Below, piece after piece: positions 38,401 to 50,400 of a stretch of DNA of 52,664 nucleotides. The stretch spans positions 1 to 52,664 of the forward strand of contig NZ_MWQY01000025.1 in NCBI RefSeq assembly GCF_002087085.1, read 5' to 3'. Numbering within the stretch: position 1 is the first letter of the stretch; every line of letters begins with the position of its first letter. A program made the position numbers.

Positions 38401-41400
38401 CTCGGTGTCCGCCCGCATAAGGTTTGCCGCCGCCAGATCCGGGGGCAGGAGGGCGGAGACCGACTGGGCCGGAAGGTGTTCCAGGGGGAGGGAGATGGTG
38501 GTTTTGAGTTTTTTCAGGACGTCCCGCCGTTGAATCTCGAAGATATAATAGATGCCGCCGGAAACCTGATAATCACCGTTGGCCTGTTCCAGTACCAGAC
38601 GGAGCAGCTCGCTGAACTCCTTGTCCTCGAAACGGAGTTCCTCCAGCACAGCGTCTCCCCGCATCAGCAGGCTGTACTCCTCTCCTTCGGCGCTGAAAAG
38701 ATCCTTTAAAAGGTCCCGAAAACGCACCCGTTCCAGATCAAGGCTGTACAGCCCCTCGTTATTGCGGGAAAGGAGCTGACCGCGGCGGGAGGCAGGTTCT
38801 CCTGAAGCTGTACGCCGGATATAGAAATAGTCATCTTCTGTTTCCAGTTCATGCTCCGAAAGCCGGGCAGTAAGGACCTCCAGTGCGGCGGCCGGAGACA
38901 GGTCGTCGATGTGGATTGTAAGCCGTTCATTAGGCAGAGCGTCAAACAGCACCGTTTTGCCCATGGCCCGGGAGAGAGCCCGCAGCAGCAGCCGGAGTTC
39001 AACATCCTCTCCGTGAAGGCTGACTGTTCCTGCCTCTTCGTTCCAGCGGGCATCGATGCGGGAGACGTAGATAAGCCCGTCCCGCCTGATGCCGTAGAGC
39101 TTATAGGTATCCAGGAAGACCCGCAGGGCGGTATCGAAATTCATGGTGCTGAAATGGTAGCTGGCGCTGCCGGAGACCGTCTCGTCGGGGATAATGGAAA
39201 CCTCCCCGATGTCTGCCAGCACCATGAGGATATCGGTGATCGGCTGGTTGCGGAAGGAGAGGCGGTCGAGCGTGAGGGGGGCTGCGCCAGTTGTATCCAG
39301 ATCCTGAGAGAACCCAGGGATGAAAGAAAAAACAATAATTATACTTACTATTCGGTATTTCCAATTCATATCAACAATTTAAGGATTGACGTTATCAGGT
39401 ATAGTGCCAGAAAGATTGATGGAAGTCAAATCGTAAAATGTGAAAAAAGGAAAGATTTGGGTAATTATAAAAAGTAAAAAAATCTTGTGATATCACAAAA
39501 CCAGTGCTACTATTATGTCCAGAAAGTTTATTTAAGGAGATTGATATGATCGGAGCCGGTGAAGCCGTCATTCTTGGCGGGGTGTTTATTCTTATCTTTG
39601 GGGCCTCCCAAATTCCGAAAGTCGCTCGATCCGTTGGAGAAGGCATTACGGAGTTAAAGAAATCTATCCGGGAAGCGAAGGATATCGATCTCGATGATCC
39701 TTCCCTGGGCGATAAGACGAAGAATAATTAACAATCGTTTTATATATGTCCCAGTGTTATTCTTCGGTGCGTCCTGTTCGCAAGGTCATGCCTTTTTGGG
39801 ACCATGTTTATGAACTACGTAACCGAATTGTTCTGGTTATTACATGCTCTGCTCTTTTCTCGGTTGTAAGTTACGTTTTCTACCCTGATGCCGTTGTTCT
39901 GATTCAGTCTATTTTGCGGGAAGAATTATACGTTACCTCAATAACTGAAGGATTCCTGACTCGGCTGAAAACAAGTCTGCTTTTTGGAATTTATTGTTCC
40001 ATTCCTCTCCTTGGTATTCAGATCTCGTTGTTTGCAGCTCCTGCTCTTTCCGGCTCCGAACGTTTTTATCTTGTCGCCGTGTTGGTCTCGTCTTTTATTC
40101 TGATGTCTGCGGGTCTCCTTTTTGCACTTAAGGCTGTTCTGCCGATAAGCCTTAGATTTTTGCGTTCAGAGGTGTTTTACCCAGGCGATGTCAGCAGACT
40201 GCTTTCTTATACGCTTTATCTGCAGTTCTTTTTTCAGTTTATAATAGGTTTTGGTCTGTTCTTTCAATTTCCCATTGTAATAATTATGCTTCTTAAATTT
40301 AGAATTATTGATACTTCTTTTCTGCTCAGGAATTTTAAATACTTTATCGGCATAATCTTTTTGGTCTCCGCAGCTGTTACTCCGCCGGATATAGTATCCC
40401 AGATTTTACTGGCCCTTCCAATGACACTATTGTACGGGGTGTGCATTGTGCTTGGAAAGGTCTTTCGAATGGATGATTAGAATGTTTGGTATTGGATTTG
40501 GTGAATTATTACTCGCCTTGCTGGTGGTTTTTCTGGTATCCCCCAAGGACTTTCCAAAATTCATGAAGAAAGCGGGAGAGTTTATTGCTACAGGAGACAG
40601 AATCCGTAAAGAGATGTTCGCTTTGCGAAACGAGGTAGTGTCCATAGCGGAAAATCTGGAGATTGATGAAGAAACCGTAAAAAAGAGAAAAAAAGATAAT
40701 CAGGAAGAAGTCAATACGAAAACGGAGAATGGATGAATGTTGCGCAATCCCTGGATATACATTACGGAAGCGTGTAATCTCAGATGTAAATATTGTTTTA
40801 ATCCCAATAAAGTATTGAGTCGTGCAAACACGATTACATTATCGAACTTCAAACAAATTATTGAGAATATCCTGTTCTATTCTGATATCTCTGAAGATAT
40901 GCCCTTGCGGATTGTTTTATTCGGCGGAGAACCGACCTTATATCCGGAATTGTTGAAGGAATTGATGGACTATGCCTATGGACGGCTTGAAGGGAAGGTT
41001 CAGTTTCATTTAATAACCAACGGGACAAATATAACCGCAGTCGGAGATTGCATGATTGAGTACAGTCAGAAGTCTGCTTTAAGTATACAGCTTTCGATTG
41101 ATGCTGCTCCGGAAAATCTTACGCTAAGGGTCGGAGATGATAAACGACAAATCTATGAAGACTCGTTAAGAAAAACATTTGATTTTCTGCTGGATAACTC
41201 GATCAGGTTTTCTATTCGAGCAACCCTATCCCCGGAACAAGTTGAAGATTTATGGGAGAATTTCAGGTATTTTGTGTCCGTCTATGATGAATCCGACAAA
41301 ATTACATCCAATATAACTTTTTCACCTGATTTTCTTACTGGAAAGTGGAGCGAAGATAATTTCTCTCGTTTAGATGAACAGGTTGATAAAATTGTTTCCT

Positions 41401-47400: not shown

Positions 47401-50400
47401 TTCGACGCAGACCCGTGGGTATGGACTGAAAACTTTACCTACGACAGCAGAAACAACCTCACCAGCAAAGCCAACGGCTGGGGAGCCGTACCCTTCAGCT
47501 ACAACGCTGCCAATGAGTTAACACAAGCCGGAGAGAGAACCTACACTCATGATGCCAACGGCAACCTTACCCGGGAAGCCTTAAATGAGGTAAGCGCCGA
47601 CTACAGCTACACCCCGGAGAACCGTATCGAACAGATAGAAACCGAAATTGAAGCCTTCATGAGTCACCACTGCGATGGTGAAACCGGGGTACGCTATACC
47701 TATGATTCCCTGGGACGGCGAAGCTCTCGGACGGCCTATACAACCAAGAGTAATCATGGCTGGCACAACGAGATTGAGTGGAACAAGGAATCGAACCAGA
47801 GTTACCTCTATGACGGTCTGTCTTTCAATGTATTAGCAGAATTAAAAGACACCCAGTTTAGGGTGGACACTCACGGAAGAACTCATCGCCGCACCTCACG
47901 TTACCAGTGGCAACCTGTTAGTGAATACCTCTACGGCAATGGGAGCAGGCTGATCAGTAAAACCGCCTTTGCCACAAACGAACGCTTCGGCAATCGCTAC
48001 CCCCGTCATACCGACACAGACTATTATCTGCAGGATGTGTTGGGATCGGTAGTCGGGATTACCGATGAACGGGGGAACCAGACGGAGGCCTACAGCTTTG
48101 ATGTATGGGGCAACCACTATGATCGACCCAACCAGACAAACAGCACTCATACCGATGCTGGCTGGAATGCGTTGCCGGCCACGTTATTCGGCTTCAACGG
48201 GAAGAAGTTTGATCCGAAGGTCGGACTGTATGATTATGGTTTCAGGGATTATAAGCCTGCCATTAACAGGTGGACCACCATAGACCCAATACGCGCGGGG
48301 AAGAACTGGTACGCCTATGTGGAGAATGATCCGGTGAATTGGGTTGATTTGTGGGGGTTGCTGCCGGAGGTGGGAGGGACTGGTCAGGTTGATGATCCGT
48401 TGGAACGAGCAATTATTGATAATTTAGACTTCGATGAACCTGGTAGCAAGTGTGATGAATTTTGTACCGAAGTTATGGATGATGCAGGCTTGACTCCCAA
48501 TGATTGGCCTGATCCTGATGATTATAAAGTTGGTGAAAACCCTGAAGATATACCTAATTATATTGATCATTATAGTAGTCAGACACAAGATGTACCAAAT
48601 ACTGGTGCAAACGCAGTGATGATGGAAACCGGTCACCCAGCAGAGCATATGGGTATTGTAGATGTTGAAGAGGATGGTTCTATTTCGGGAGCTCATTATA
48701 GTGGTGGAGAAGTCGAACAATTCGAATATGACAATCAAAATGATTTTGAAGACGCTTTTGTATATGAAGATTTTCATTATCTTCCTTTGGAGTAGACTTA
48801 TGAAAATATGGAAGAGTGCATACATAATTTTAGTTATATTATCCTGTAGCTGTAGTGTTTTCCCTCAAAATGATCTGAGAAGAATAAGATTTGAATTTGA
48901 AAGCTCAACTGGATATTTGAATTCAGATTTAGGGGTTGTTATACCAGCACAGTTTGATTCCGGGACAGATTTCGTCGATGGTATAGCAGTAGTAAAAGAT
49001 GAGAAAGGCTATCATGTAATAAATGAAAAAGGTGAAATTGTTTTTCGTACAGAGGCGGATTACGTTGAAAAACCAAATAATGGAATGATCCTATTTAAAA
49101 TGGATGGAGTATATGGTTTTTATGACTACACTGGTAAAGTAAAACTAGAGGGATATTTGCATGCAAAATCGTTTAGTGAGGATTATGCAATAGTAAGAAC
49201 AACACAAAAAGCATATTATATAAACAAACATGGCGAAGATGTTTTTCCAGATTTGGTTATATCAGGAGGAGGAAATTTTTCTAATGGGTATGCTGTTTTT
49301 TGGGTCAAAACAAATGAGGGCATACAAAAGGGGTTAATAAATAATAGTGGAGAGATTATACTTCCACCAAAGTTTACTATTCTGGGTGAGTTTTCAGATG
49401 GGTTGTGTGAAGCGTCATTTAATGACAAAGTGGGGTACATCGATTTAAGTGGAAGATTCGTTATTCCACCTAAATATAATTATGGTTTCGCTTTTAATCA
49501 AGGAATTGCTGCAGTTCAATATCGTACGTTCGAAAGAAAACAACCGTTCTATCCATTCTGGCGACTTATTAATAAAAGTGGTGATATAGTAAAGGATTTA
49601 TCTGAAGATGTTGTAGTGTTTTCTGATTTTATTGAAAATTATGCAATAATTGGCGTTTTTGACAACACGCGAGAAAAAATGCTATACGGATATTTAAAAA
49701 AAAATGGGGAAACATTAATCAATCCGATATTTGATGACGCTGATGTTTTTCATGATGGCTATGCAGTCATAGAGTACAAAGGTCGTGATGCACTTCTTGA
49801 TAAATTTGGAACAATTATTTATTTGAGGGATATATTAAATCCTCATGTCACTTCGCGGTAACCGAAACGATGAAAATATTCTTACTGACTATTTTAGTAA
49901 TAGACACGGAATAGTCAGTTTTATAACGACTTTATTTAGTGTGCGAGGAATAATTTTAATGCTGTTCAACAAGCACCGGCATAAAGGTGAAAAAGTTGCT
50001 AAAAACTTGTGATCATTGACAGGTAAGAGAAAGGAAGAAAATCTGGAGAAAGAACCGTCGGGGTAGGCGAAAAGAATACGTTTACTTCTGACGTTTCTTT
50101 CTTCCTTATTTCCGCGTATTCGCATACAACGCGATTGGCGCGGATAAAGAATGTGGATGCAAATAATGGTATGGAAGTTGAAAGTACATGAAGACAGAAC
50201 CCACCGCGTTGGAGATTGCCGGCAAGGGATTGGAGGGGCGCCGAAGGCGGACCCCGCAGGGACTGAAAGGTCCGAGGAGGCCGGAGCGATAGCGGAGCCC
50301 CGGAAAGCCCGGTCCTGCACCTACTTTTCAATGTTGAAAAGTAGGTGCAGGGATGCCGCCAGACAGAACCGCGCAAATCCGAAAAAAAATCCGTGCGAAT

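Follow-up and report, generated by a model that had tools for sequence, protein, structure and literature searches.

In a marine spirochaete, one operon combines a second, private set of Tat genes with the genes for a giant RHS toxin and for a radical-SAM enzyme of the thioether type. This operon lies in the window analysed here, a stretch of 52,664 nucleotides (contig NZ_MWQY01000025.1), and reads tatA-tatC-tatB, radical-SAM/SPASM enzyme, 247-aa Cys protein (ORF5), 2026-aa RHS toxin and lipoprotein, all on the + strand. The genes are tightly packed: the tatB stop abuts the radical-SAM start, ORF5 and the RHS start overlap by 11 nt, and 4 nt separate the RHS stop from the WG-repeat gene. Judging from the sequences, this could be a self-contained locus for the production and export of the toxin, whose N-terminus would be cross-linked before leaving through the private Tat system; this reading is tentatively preferred here. 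The ORF positions given by a first-pass annotation were borne out. Its description of a low-G+C island holds for 39-43 kb and 48-50 kb (0.33-0.45 against 0.53 for the genome), but not for the RHS core (0.50-0.56). The exact arrangement is known from two genomes, both of one genus; the family is nearly confined to these two genomes, and the comparative support rests on them.

The Tat genes come first. The likely start of tatA (39546..39731, 61 aa) is the ATG at 39546, which is preceded in the sequence by AAGGAG, the mechanical ORF start being a GTG at 39504. Its product matches PF02416 with 46.8 bits (cut-off 21) and TIGR01411 with 46 bits, below the cut-off of 53.9. The genome's second tatC copy (39746..40480) covers the whole PF00902 profile (158.6 bits, span 1-208/208) and, as first claimed, passes the curated cut-off of TIGR00945 over its full length (142.9 bits against 132.7). 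The third gene, tatB-like (40482..40736, 84 aa; mechanical ORF start 40446), scores 35.3 bits with TIGR01410, below the cut-off of 56.5, and gave no match in a Pfam search. The housekeeping Tat system reported elsewhere in the genome was recovered through another TatC at C1:314581-315276, to which the island TatC is 33% identical.

The radical-SAM/SPASM enzyme (40737..41912, 391 aa) is devoid of an N-terminal RRE domain. It matches Radical_SAM with 51.9 bits and SPASM with 17.3 bits, below the cut-off of 21.5; its cluster motif C13-x3-C17-x2-C20 is an intact CX3CX2C, and the seven-Cys SPASM motif (C261, C279, C327, C330, C336, C340, C357) is invariant in 4/4 sequences. The best NCBIfam match is indeed PapB (NF047865, 153.2 bits, far below the cut-off of 340), followed by the QhpD, SCIFF and CXXX-repeat maturases; all these subfamily scores fall under the curated cut-offs, and so does that of the target family TIGR04117 considered below. 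Only three close relatives were found among 5.77 billion clusters. PapB forms Cys-Xn-Asp/Glu thioethers with n = 0-6 (PMC9413430), and this type of chemistry fits the Cys/Asp module of the RHS protein. Precedents for whole proteins with radical-SAM thioethers are the 28.8-kDa CrpA and QHNDH (PMC13692751).

The orphan protein ORF5 (41982..42725, 247 aa; mechanical ORF start 41925) has four invariant Cys, C163, C182, C222 and C225. None of its six family members (0/6) matches Pfam or NCBIfam, and a search of 1.84 billion representatives gave 6 matches at E<=0.001. The SPASM-like character proposed for this partner was not upheld, with no family match and a probability of 0.1 in a profile comparison against the radical-SAM family. 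An AF2 model (pLDDT 57) gave weak, TIM-barrel-like fold matches, and one ESM-Atlas row (SPASM cluster, score 0.90, 111/256 features) is to be taken as a lead only. ORF5 is perhaps an orphan four-Cys helper of the radical-SAM enzyme.

The first 50 residues of the RHS protein (42715..42864) read as a Tat-type signal. The n-region is long and charged, the motif is DRREFL, and the h-region (ISLKTILGSSVGIASFIS) is rich in Gly/Ser and weakly hydrophobic; the c-region contains a Lys, and LYA precedes DD. DRREFL agrees with the Tat consensus in its core and is also present on a textbook Tat substrate of the same genome (C75:161637). The RHS is one of 19 ORFs of the genome passing a simple rule (RR.F[LIVM] plus an uncharged stretch); the Tat-signal models TIGR01409 and PF10518 do not match it. 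Another giant RHS-like protein of this genome bears a plain, strongly hydrophobic Sec-type signal, so RR signals are no general rule here.

Sequence reading and a window count place a Cys/Asp-rich module at residues 51-92 (42865..42990). Its reported composition is correct: DRREFL is followed by 8 Cys and 12 Asp/Glu within 40 residues, and 7/8 Cys have an Asp at +1 to +3. This density (20/40) is the highest among 17,275 six-frame ORFs, the next reaching 15, and the next-densest ORFs are all ferredoxin-like. The claim that CxxD/E motifs are most numerous in the RHS also stands, by a thin margin (4, where ten other ORFs have 3 each). The match to TIGR04117 was found again for signal and module together, but its 29.6 bits are below the cut-off of 50 and about half of them come from the Tat-signal part: scanned separately, residues 1-50 reach 15.2 bits and the Cys part has no match, and in two further genomes the same half of the profile picks up Tat-signal proteins of the ordinary kind. 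Among the 120 small ORFs checked in the operon, 12 are Cys-rich, and each of them (12/12) falls within a known gene in another frame, so that no separate Cys-rich peptide ORF exists besides the larger genes; the RHS N-terminus is therefore the sole candidate substrate in the operon.

The RHS body (42991..48360) comprises an Ala/Glu-rich helical linker, DUF6531 (aa 183-238), 20 YD-repeat stretches and the Rhs-associated core (aa 1813-1882; Rhs_assc_core 65.7 bits, cut-off 32.5). A C-terminal toxin tip of about 145 aa (48361..48795) follows. Pfam and NCBIfam searches with the tip were without match, its ESM leads (amidase/CHAP/NlpC) all stay under 0.9, and its AF2 pLDDT is 45. The tip is 20% identical to that of the main RHS of a congener (G002) and 92% identical to an orphan cassette of the same congener. 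The WG-repeat protein (48800..49861; WG_beta_rep 123.2 bits, 4 stretches) has a lipoprotein-like signal (MKIWKSAYIILVILSC) and is a probable immunity protein. Its gene moves with the toxin tip, the DNA from 48013 to 50160 being 93.5% identical to the G002 orphan cassette.

The syntenic island reported for the congener was confirmed in G002, with the same gene order. The Tat proteins are nearly the same (TatA 61/61, TatC 90.6%, TatB 92.9%), and identity is 45.6% for the radical-SAM enzyme, 33% for ORF5 and 51.8% for the RHS. The DNA from 37000 to 41026, covering the secretin, the tat genes and the radical-SAM 5' end, is 89.8% identical; beyond 41026, through the radical-SAM gene, ORF5 and the RHS gene, similarity is limited to patches of 65-77% identity. 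These three genes diverge together, which suggests that the block was exchanged as a unit. The same is suggested by an orphan RHS fragment (50345..52663, + strand; RHS_repeat 273.2 bits, 11 stretches) that continues past the contig end, and whose DNA (51038-52662) shares 95.6% identity with the core region of the main RHS in G002. The G002 module, made of CSGD units, differs from that of the window but is equivalent, and does match TIGR04117 as reported, at only 19.7 bits. The two departures noted in the congener are real: its RHS has DRKEFL, with RK instead of RR, and its radical-SAM gene contains one in-frame TAA. Since the G002 RHS is intact despite both, the modification may be dispensable there.

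The island TatC is 41-50% identical to those of the genomes G021, G020 and G018, which belong to a spirochaetal TatC group that recurs within radical-SAM peptide clusters; the closest relative (G021, 50%) lies in a plain tatA-tatC-tatB operon. A tree of 18 TatC sequences unites the island pair with G021 and seven radical-SAM-linked TatCs (support 95/91), to the exclusion of the housekeeping TatC of the genus; the island TatC is not nested within the fusion-linked set. A TatB::radical-SAM/SPASM fusion occurs in 7/301 Spirochaetia genomes, with a TatC of the island group directly upstream in 7/7 and CX3CX2C kept in 5/7, whereas a radical-SAM gene within 1.5 kb was found in 0/9 other TatC loci used as control. 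Genes for Tat-signal Tyr-repeat lipopeptides were read in four such clusters (G020, G018, G592, G640) and matched by tblastn in a fifth (G606). Over its N-terminal 56 aa, the island TatB-like protein shares 36% identity with the start of the G020 fusion (E 1e-4). By sequence comparison (28% over 96 aa), the island radical-SAM enzyme is no orthologue of the fused one, and no ORF5 counterpart was found in the fusion-linked clusters. A profile built from the signals of the four Tyr-repeat precursors does not single out the RHS: that of G002 scores 8.8 bits (E 1.2), and the window RHS is absent from the best 15 matches listed. RK recurs in a precursor of an intact cluster (G640), and in G002 it is thus no strong objection.

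Head-to-head with the island lies a T2SS-type operon (33962..39369, - strand), overlooked by the first-pass annotation, which might provide an outer-membrane step. It encodes a secretin (37177-39369; PF00263 105.5 bits), a GspE-like ATPase (35690-37180; T2SSE 406.7 bits; GspE 484.8, below the equivalog cut-off), a GspF-like protein (34485-35687; T2SSF 141.4 bits; GspF 182.1, below the equivalog cut-off) and a GspG pseudopilin (33962-34534; T2SSG 122.1 bits; TIGR01710 123.3, above the cut-off of 88.85). Further, unassigned genes extend beyond GspG down to about 30104, among them a weak GspM-like one (30583-31146; 18.6 bits). Neither TssC nor PAAR was found in the genome (97% complete), which, with the head-to-head position of this operon, makes a Tat-then-T2SS route plausible. 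The adjacency may also be accidental, because this flank of the secretin varies within the genus as a hot spot, with differing low-G+C inserts in G004, G005 and G003 and none in G001. The mature RHS, of about 220 kDa, is to our knowledge bigger than any known Tat substrate, and such a cargo would be exceptional. Tat substrates that go on to leave the cell have been described in Pseudomonas aeruginosa (PMC4899797).

In the preferred reading, the RHS, encoded in the observed operon, would be made in the cytoplasm with its first 50 residues acting as a predicted twin-arginine signal. The radical-SAM enzyme, perhaps with ORF5, would join module Cys to nearby Asp side chains by thioethers, turning the 40 residues into a compact, protease-resistant N-terminal knot. 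The cross-linked and perhaps folded protein would be unfit for threading through Sec and would take the private Tat system, the signal being cleaved after LYA. From the periplasm it may exit through the T2SS encoded head-to-head, as its adjacency hints; the C-terminal tip would be an exchangeable toxin, from which the WG-repeat lipoprotein would shield the producer.

The most serious competitor, itself rather unlikely, retains Tat export of the RHS, but the module would form disulfides or bind metal (Ca, Zn or an Fe-S cluster), and the enzyme and ORF5 would have another target: ORF5 itself, a Tat component or a substrate encoded elsewhere. Proteins that are already folded or carry a cofactor are common Tat cargo, no radical-SAM target family is matched by the Cys part of the module taken alone, and ORF5, with its four invariant Cys, has no known role; the enzyme, without RRE, scores below every subfamily cut-off, and G002 has kept its RHS despite the stop codon in its radical-SAM gene. 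Yet the operon offers no other candidate substrate, an Asp lies within three residues of nearly every module Cys, and the genes of enzyme, ORF5 and RHS, all three diverged, seem to move as one block. The best enzyme family, moreover, makes Cys-Asp thioethers (PMC9413430).

Two further explanations rank lower. That the genes are accidental neighbours in a hot-spot mosaic, with a second general Tat, an unrelated or defunct radical-SAM pair and an RHS using any Tat or Sec, is improbable: the differing inserts beside the secretin, the plain operon of the closest TatC relative, and the presence in the genome of further substrates of DRREFL type and of a housekeeping Tat would agree with it, but the genes overlap or abut like a single operon, G002 keeps their order although the cargo genes have diverged by about 50% at the protein level, and radical-SAM adjacency marks the island TatC group and none of the nine control loci. 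Still less probable is that the N-terminal hydrophobic stretch is a Sec signal or membrane anchor, with an incidental RR and Sec export of the RHS. RHS proteins with a signal peptide, WapA among them, exist in other bacteria, and the silent Tat-signal models, the RK of G002 and the size of the RHS point the same way. Against this stand the fit of DRREFL to the consensus core and its sharing with a textbook substrate, the character of the n- and h-regions and the c-region Lys, the tatABC set within the operon, the clearly different Sec-type signal of the other giant RHS-like protein, and the RK precursor of an intact Tat-linked cluster.

Cross-linking before Tat export, as first proposed, is partly supported and still something that we infer; two new lines of evidence favour it and no contradiction was found. 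If true, the toxin would be chemically cross-linked ahead of its export, a feature undescribed for RHS-type toxins.

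The island at 39.4-49.9 kb of the window consists of seven genes on the + strand, whose neighbours abut or overlap. It opens with tatA (likely start ATG at 39546, with AAGGAG upstream of the start), tatC (39746-40480) and a tatB-like gene (40482-40736). No base separates the tatB stop from the start of a radical-SAM/SPASM gene (40737-41912), which is followed by the orphan gene ORF5 (41982-42725), by the RHS gene (42715-48795; 2026 aa), which overlaps ORF5 by 11 nt, and by a WG-repeat gene (48800-49861). The genome, of 4.2 Mb in 79 contigs, has a G+C of 0.53, and its contig C18 constitutes the window. 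The low G+C ascribed to the whole island by the first-pass annotation was found at 39-43 kb and 48-50 kb (0.33-0.45) and is lost in the RHS core (0.50-0.56). Promoter and terminator scans stayed at chance level (21 versus 18.3 and 12 versus 12.3, respectively). The Pfam and NCBIfam scores previously reported for the components were reproduced when the searches were rerun.

The RHS protein begins with MKNEKESSDKSQDIDQNIDRREFLSISLKTILGSSVGIASFISTKDTLYA, followed by DDRGCADYCGGDCITYGSGGCTCDGDDDSCNDSCDDCSSD. Residues 1-50 contain a Tat core of the RR-x-F-L type, D-R-R-E-F-L-S (consensus S/T-R-R-x-F-L-K), together with a long charged n-region, a Gly/Ser-rich h-region and a Lys in the c-region. A stretch of 15 uncharged residues follows Lys, and a K stands before LYA, an A-x-A-like site, after which comes DD. 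Among the six-frame ORFs of at least 100 aa, 19, RHS included, pass a simple Tat rule that asks for RR.F[LIVM] within the N-terminal 70 residues and for a stretch of 12 uncharged residues. Two textbook housekeeping Tat substrates are also found among these 19, at C75:161637-162558 (MDRREFLKMLG...), which adjoins an Fe-S protein gene, and at C1:6110-6761 (...TRRDFLKYTG...). The curated Tat-signal models TIGR01409 and PF10518, which are short and whose weak matches are dropped by the HMMER filters, gave no RHS match at E<=10. The module that follows the signal (residues 51-92) is richer in Cys plus Asp/Glu than any other stretch of the genome's ORFs, with 20 of 40 residues against 15 in the next, ferredoxin-like, window. 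The spacing of its Cys-Xn-Asp motifs is irregular (n = 0-2), and the singularity claimed earlier for its CxxD/E count is borne out narrowly, since RHS has four such motifs and each of ten other ORFs has three.

The sole family match of this N-terminus is TIGR04117, a radical-SAM target family, over profile positions 9-91 of 98. The match announced by the first-pass annotation does exist, at 29.6 bits; it lies under the cut-off of 50, and about half of it is owed to the Tat-signal part. Residues 1-50 alone score 15.2 bits (profile positions 9-41), and neither residues 51-100 nor the 41-residue Cys module, each searched alone, matched this profile. When 301 Spirochaetia genomes were scanned, the first half of TIGR04117 also matched ordinary small Tat-signal proteins in two genomes, G619 and G639, because this half resembles a Tat signal. 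The sub-scores therefore indicate that the match means "Tat signal plus something Cys-rich" more than "radical-SAM target". It does indicate that an architecture combining a Tat signal with a Cys-repeat radical-SAM target is on record as a curated family. The small protein of the two genomes (loci L053 and L054; G639:C213 and G619:C33) has a short Cys-rich tail, and its gene immediately precedes that of a multi-cluster ferredoxin-like protein with a Tat signal. The rarity of the RHS N-terminus was confirmed, the query itself being the only match among proteins of 1114-3546 aa; no homologue was found among proteins of 176-2000 aa.

The best family of the radical-SAM enzyme is PapB (NF047865), with 153.2 bits against an equivalog cut-off of 340. 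ScfB-related, QhpD (third-best, 73.6 bits), Nif11, SCIFF and other maturases come next, and the TIGR04115 maturase model gives 54.4 bits against 350. Judged by the cut-off, the enzyme falls outside the PapB family, and may perhaps work like it. Its cluster motif is C13-x3-C17-x2-C20 (CX3CX2C) and its SPASM seven-Cys motif is complete (C261-x12-G-x4-C279, C327-x2-C-x5-C-x3-C340, C357) and invariant in four of four sequences, with a Pfam SPASM score of 17.3 bits, under 21.5. As only 12 residues precede the cluster motif, the enzyme is devoid of an RRE domain. Its close relatives among 5.77 billion clusters number three, namely P0003 (39% identity), P0004 (34%) and a fragment from the congener G002. 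A profile search of genome contigs with the radical-SAM alignment returned only relatives of 19-24% identity, at six loci in Bacillota MAGs, and neither the radical-SAM family nor the ORF5 family was found in the JGI metagenomes scanned.

The product of ORF5 had been presented as a SPASM-like partner of this enzyme, a likeness that proved weaker on closer analysis: six family members gave no Pfam or NCBIfam match, and the hhalign probability with radical-SAM proteins was 0.1. One ESM-Atlas row leads to a SPASM cluster, with a score of a size that may also arise by chance. The family possesses four invariant Cys and was represented by six matches at E<=0.001 among 1.84 billion representatives; the ORF5-like proteins P0023-P0026 are carried by contigs of 1-3.3 kb. 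A profile search of 400 other Spirochaetota genomes gave nothing convincing, with one marginal match of 19.7 bits in G225. Against the PDB, the best match of the profile is Mre11 (E 0.0012), limited to the N-terminal part. The AF2 model is of low confidence (pLDDT 57), with weak TIM-barrel-like (alpha/beta-barrel) rows and no Foldseek match at E<=0.001. The predicted complex between the radical-SAM enzyme and ORF5 scored 0.31 against a mark of 0.32.

The remainder of the RHS protein fits the description of polymorphic toxins, in which shell and core are followed by a variable tip at the C-terminus and, downstream, by an immunity gene. It comprises 20 YD-repeat stretches (RHS_repeat, 443 bits), a DUF6531 domain and a Rhs-associated core (TIGR03696, 65.7 bits versus 32.5). 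The tip has no family match in Pfam or NCBIfam and its predicted model has a pLDDT of 45. Weak leads to papain-like amidases would agree with a target in the periplasm and with an immunity factor of the lipoprotein type.

The congener G002, an organism named Marispirochaeta sp. in one source, has a syntenic island, as noted previously, whose gene order and chromosomal location are unchanged. Protein identities are very high for TatA (61/61), TatC (90.6%) and TatB (92.9%), and fall to 45.6% for the radical-SAM enzyme, 33% for ORF5 and 51.8% for RHS, whose shell is 55% identical and whose tip is 20% identical. At the DNA level, a collinear block of 89.8% identity (37000-41026) runs from the secretin gene through the tat genes and ends within the radical-SAM gene, after its first 290 nt, beyond which only patches of 65-77% are found. 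The tip and immunity gene of the window (48013-50160) are 93.5% identical in DNA to an orphan cassette of G002, and the orphan RHS fragment of the window (51038-52662) is 95.6% identical to the main RHS core of G002. RHS loci usually evolve by block exchanges of this type, which leave orphan 3' parts. On the simplest reading of these alignments, the tat genes would form a stable platform on which the radical-SAM/ORF5/RHS block was swapped as a unit, the 3' part of the old RHS being left as an orphan; the swap ties the enzyme and ORF5 to the toxin, and not to the tat genes. Several further tip-like repeats are observed downstream in G002, and five short contigs of the window's own genome (C36, C39, C40, C43 and C48; 2-5.6 kb) contain mostly RHS fragments. 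In these contigs the orphan array probably continues, unassembled, past the end of the window.

The module of the G002 protein is different but equivalent, with CSGD units inside a longer Cys/Asp/Glu stretch. These units are encoded by seven perfect 12-bp tandem copies of TGTTCAGGCGAT (L011 13885-13968, - strand). The array looks as if it had recently been expanded by slippage, and the number of CSGD units may accordingly vary between strains. The N-terminus of this protein scores 19.7 bits with TIGR04117, and its Cys part alone 8.5 bits (E 2). Two observations on G002, already raised as objections, were confirmed: its signal reads DRKEFL, with RK in place of RR, and its radical-SAM gene has one in-frame TAA. 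Both would count against a strict dependence on the modification. As the cluster cysteines are otherwise all intact, the break in the enzyme gene would be recent, or a sequencing error.

The Tat translocase carries folded proteins endowed with an RR signal. Among the island components, TatC is above its curated cut-off (TIGR00945, 142.9 bits versus 132.7) and matches its family over its full length (PF00902, 158.6 bits over 1-208/208). TatA passes the Pfam cut-off (46.8 bits versus 21) and stays under that of TIGR01411 (46 bits versus 53.9), and TatB, which is without a Pfam match, reaches 35.3 bits with TIGR01410, under the cut-off of 56.5. With the housekeeping TatC of its own genome, the island TatC shares 33% identity; with those of G021, G020 and G018, which belong to three other Spirochaetia families, it shares 50%, 43% and 41%, respectively. 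In G021, tatA, tatC and tatB form a plain operon. In G020 and G018, TatC is embedded in a peptide-maturation cluster (L035 95-8010, on G020:C95, and L036 8250-14320, on G018:C17), a RiPP-like arrangement also seen at loci L038-L042.

One gene of these clusters encodes a fusion protein of 546-567 aa (546-561 aa in G020 and G018), in which the first 56 residues are TatB-like (36% identity to the island TatB, E 1e-4) and the rest is a radical-SAM/SPASM domain. In G020 and G018, this fusion is accompanied by two more radical-SAM enzymes, one of them a DynA/DarE/anSME-like radical-SAM/SPASM protein, by a 287-aa Cys-tailed protein, a YcaO protein and a TPR protein, and by tatC, with tatA in G018. 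The precursors, 68-103 aa long (84 or 103 aa in G020/G018), consist of a Tat-type signal, a lipobox Cys and Tyr-rich (S/N/D)YY repeats, as in NITRRDALKRIAKIVGLGAAGVVIATSC followed by DPFYSDYSDYYSDYYSNYY, an example whose signal scores 16.3 bits with TIGR01409, versus 16.7. Full-length, stop-free fusions are present in 7 of the 301 Spirochaetia genomes sampled, each directly downstream of a TatC that is 31-45% identical to that of the island, and five of the seven retain CX3CX2C, which is absent in G018 and G606. Precursor genes were read in G020, G018, G592 and G640 and detected by a tblastn match in G606; none was seen within the 1.5 kb examined in G545 and G532. The G640 precursor, in a cluster that is otherwise intact, bears the RK pair SRKEAL, which weakens the objection drawn from the RK of the G002 toxin.

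In a maximum-likelihood tree of 18 TatCs, the seven fusion-linked sequences form one group with G021 and with the two island copies (support 95/91), outside of which fall the housekeeping TatCs of the genus. This group shows an unordered three-way split, so that the island TatC does not branch from within the fusion-linked set. Its proportion of fusion-linked members is skewed, five of the seven rows having been found via the fusion itself; in an unbiased sample, two of three non-island group members are radical-SAM-linked. Nine further TatC loci, that of G021 and eight from outside the group, served as a control, and none of them has a radical-SAM gene within 1.5 kb.

The likeness between these clusters and the island lies in related TatCs (41-45% identity for the Tyr-repeat clusters), in radical-SAM enzymes adjoining or fused to Tat parts, and in a cargo whose signal, with RR or RK, precedes a repeat of short period. 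As for the differences, the cargo of the clusters is a peptide of 68-103 aa with a lipobox and (S/N/D)YY repeats; two radical-SAM enzymes and YcaO are added, and the enzymes are not orthologous to that of the island, which has only generic kinship with the fused one (28% over 96 aa). No counterpart of ORF5 is present in the G020-type cluster, ORF5 has no similarity to its 287-aa protein, and a profile built on the signals of four Tyr-repeat precursors failed to pick out those of the RHS proteins. No published description of a TatB::radical-SAM/Tyr-repeat lipopeptide cluster was found.

A type II secretion-type operon, unmentioned in the first-pass annotation, lies head-to-head with tatA on the - strand (30104-39369). 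Its secretin (37177-39369, - strand) is above the Pfam cut-off, with 102.6 for PilQ versus 98 for GspD, its GspG pseudopilin scores 123.3 bits against a cut-off of 88.85, and its GspE-like ATPase and GspF-like protein are above the Pfam cut-offs of T2SSE and T2SSF. The equivalog scores for GspE, GspF and GspD are under their cut-offs, and five further genes include one that is weakly GspM-like and four without assignment. Neither TssC nor PAAR, both markers of T6SS, was found in the genome, whose completeness is 97%. In Pseudomonas aeruginosa, exoproteins are described, in the excerpts of PMC4899797, as crossing by Tat to the periplasm before being secreted out of the cell. Taken together, the type II neighbour, the missing T6SS components and this precedent make a two-step route plausible, the likeness residing in the route and in the head-to-head operon, and the difference in the general Tat and T2SS that serve many substrates in P. 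aeruginosa. An exit of the toxin through the neighbouring system may be proposed from the adjacency of the two operons. The secretin belongs to the core of the genus, being present in six of six related genomes, whereas the site at the secretin 5' end (loci L058-L061) varies, with low-G+C inserts that differ between species: a 460-aa lipoprotein-like gene in G004, a SIR2-like gene in low-G+C DNA in G005, a 306-aa protein in G003, nothing obvious in G001, and the island in the window's genome and G002 only. This adjacency may therefore reflect an insertion hot spot.

The gene set, the gene order, the motifs, the co-divergence and the association with a Tat lineage are direct observations, from which a mechanism may be proposed. 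RHS would be synthesised with a twin-arginine signal, and the PapB-like enzyme would introduce Cys-to-Asp thioethers in the 40-residue module, possibly with ORF5 as its docking or Fe-S helper. PapB accepts Cys-Xn-Asp with n = 0-6 and turns repeated motifs of this type into thioethers (excerpts of PMC9413430), and protein-sized substrates are known in CrpA and QHNDH (excerpts of PMC13692751). The cross-linked cargo would then leave via the private Tat and might exit the cell through the neighbouring T2SS, the tip acting as the putative toxin and the WG-repeat lipoprotein as the presumed immunity factor. We hold this mechanism as a whole to be tentative, its chances falling a little short of even. 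The radical-SAM and target subfamily scores, which are under their cut-offs, and the failure to match a Tat model would count against it, as does an arrangement known from two genomes of one genus. The cargo, at ~220 kDa, is also larger than any Tat substrate known to us.

The same evidence can be read in other ways. The module could bind metal or form disulfides while the enzyme acts on another substrate, an unlikely explanation, with which the stop in the G002 enzyme gene would sit easily. That the genes are accidental neighbours in a mosaic island, as the variable site next to the secretin might suggest, is distinctly less probable. The RHS signal could finally be a Sec signal or a membrane anchor, which we find improbable; the silence of the curated Tat models is compatible with it. 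A second giant RHS-like protein of the same genome (3345 aa, G000:C1:206622-216660) has a strongly hydrophobic Sec-type signal without RR, beside which the RR signal of the island RHS stands out.

Each part of the proposed mechanism is of a known kind, be it Tat, radical-SAM ranthionine chemistry, RHS or T2SS, and it is their combination that was not found in the literature searched. By their cut-offs, the locus is a member of neither the PapB nor the TIGR04117 family. With PapA/PapB (freyrasin), it shares a radical-SAM/SPASM enzyme of which PapB is the best-scoring family, and PapA likewise offers repeated Cys-Xn-Asp that become thioethers; it differs by its presumed substrate, which is not a short leader-plus-core peptide and would be the N-terminal part of a 2026-aa protein, placed after a Tat signal, and by its irregular motif spacing, Tat export of PapA not being described in the excerpts of PMC9413430. 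In CrpA/CrpC of Methanococcus voltae and QhpC/QhpD of quinohemoprotein amine dehydrogenase (QHNDH), a SPASM enzyme links Cys to acceptor residues in a whole protein encoded next to it, which provides the likeness of a protein-sized thioether substrate. Unlike the island enzyme, CrpC has an RRE, CrpA is a 28.8-kDa protein of unknown function, and neither system involves a toxin or is mentioned with a Tat signal or a private Tat (excerpts of PMC13692751). The TIGR04117/TIGR04115 system resembles the island by a target profile whose first half behaves like a Tat signal, and differs in that the island target and maturase both score under the cut-offs; no publication on TIGR04117, or on a CXXX repeat with radical SAM, was found.

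WapA of Bacillus subtilis is an RHS toxin with a signal peptide. With such toxins and with the T6SS Rhs effectors, the island protein has in common the YD-repeat shell, the Rhs-associated core, the swappable tip, the immunity gene and the orphan cassettes. It differs from them by its twin-arginine signal and its own tatABC, by a maturase gene interposed between tatABC and the toxin gene, and by a genome in which T6SS sheath and PAAR were not found. Literature searches combining radical SAM with Tat/TatC and precursor or thioether, or RiPP with Tat signal, returned nothing, subscription journals being outside their scope. In the excerpts retrieved, no publication joins Rhs polymorphic toxins with twin-arginine, or Rhs and twin-arginine with radical SAM, and no natural Tat-exported RiPP is described among the matches listed. 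Within the same scope (subscription journals excluded) and as far as such excerpts reach, no publication was found on a private Tat together with a polymorphic toxin that has, after its Tat signal, a RiPP-like N-terminal core, the maturase gene lying between the tat and toxin genes.

A broader interpretation, more doubtful than the mechanism itself, is that this spirochaetal Tat lineage would be a maturation-coupled exporter. The signal would double as a leader docking the cargo on TatBC, and radical-SAM enzymes, either fused to TatB or encoded behind tatB as here, would cross-link a signal-proximal short-period repeat before translocation. The cargo would range from Tyr-repeat lipopeptides of ~70-100 residues to the 2026-residue RHS, the latter exiting via the adjoining type II system. 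The delivery machines generally assigned to polymorphic toxins, RHS among them, are T6SS, T7SS, Sec and Tc-type systems, and enzymatic maturation is not known to take part. If the exporter interpretation is true, the RHS protein would be the first polymorphic toxin to depend on RiPP-type chemistry. It would also far exceed every other Tat substrate in size, and as such be a test of the Tat size limit. Ranthionine-type cross-links would be extended from peptides and a 29-kDa protein to a protein of 220 kDa. Bacteria without T6SS would have a new delivery logic, in which a toxin is cross-linked by a radical-SAM enzyme and then exported by its own Tat. No publication was found on a physical coupling of peptide maturation to a translocon, a wider principle at which the TatB::radical-SAM fusions hint.
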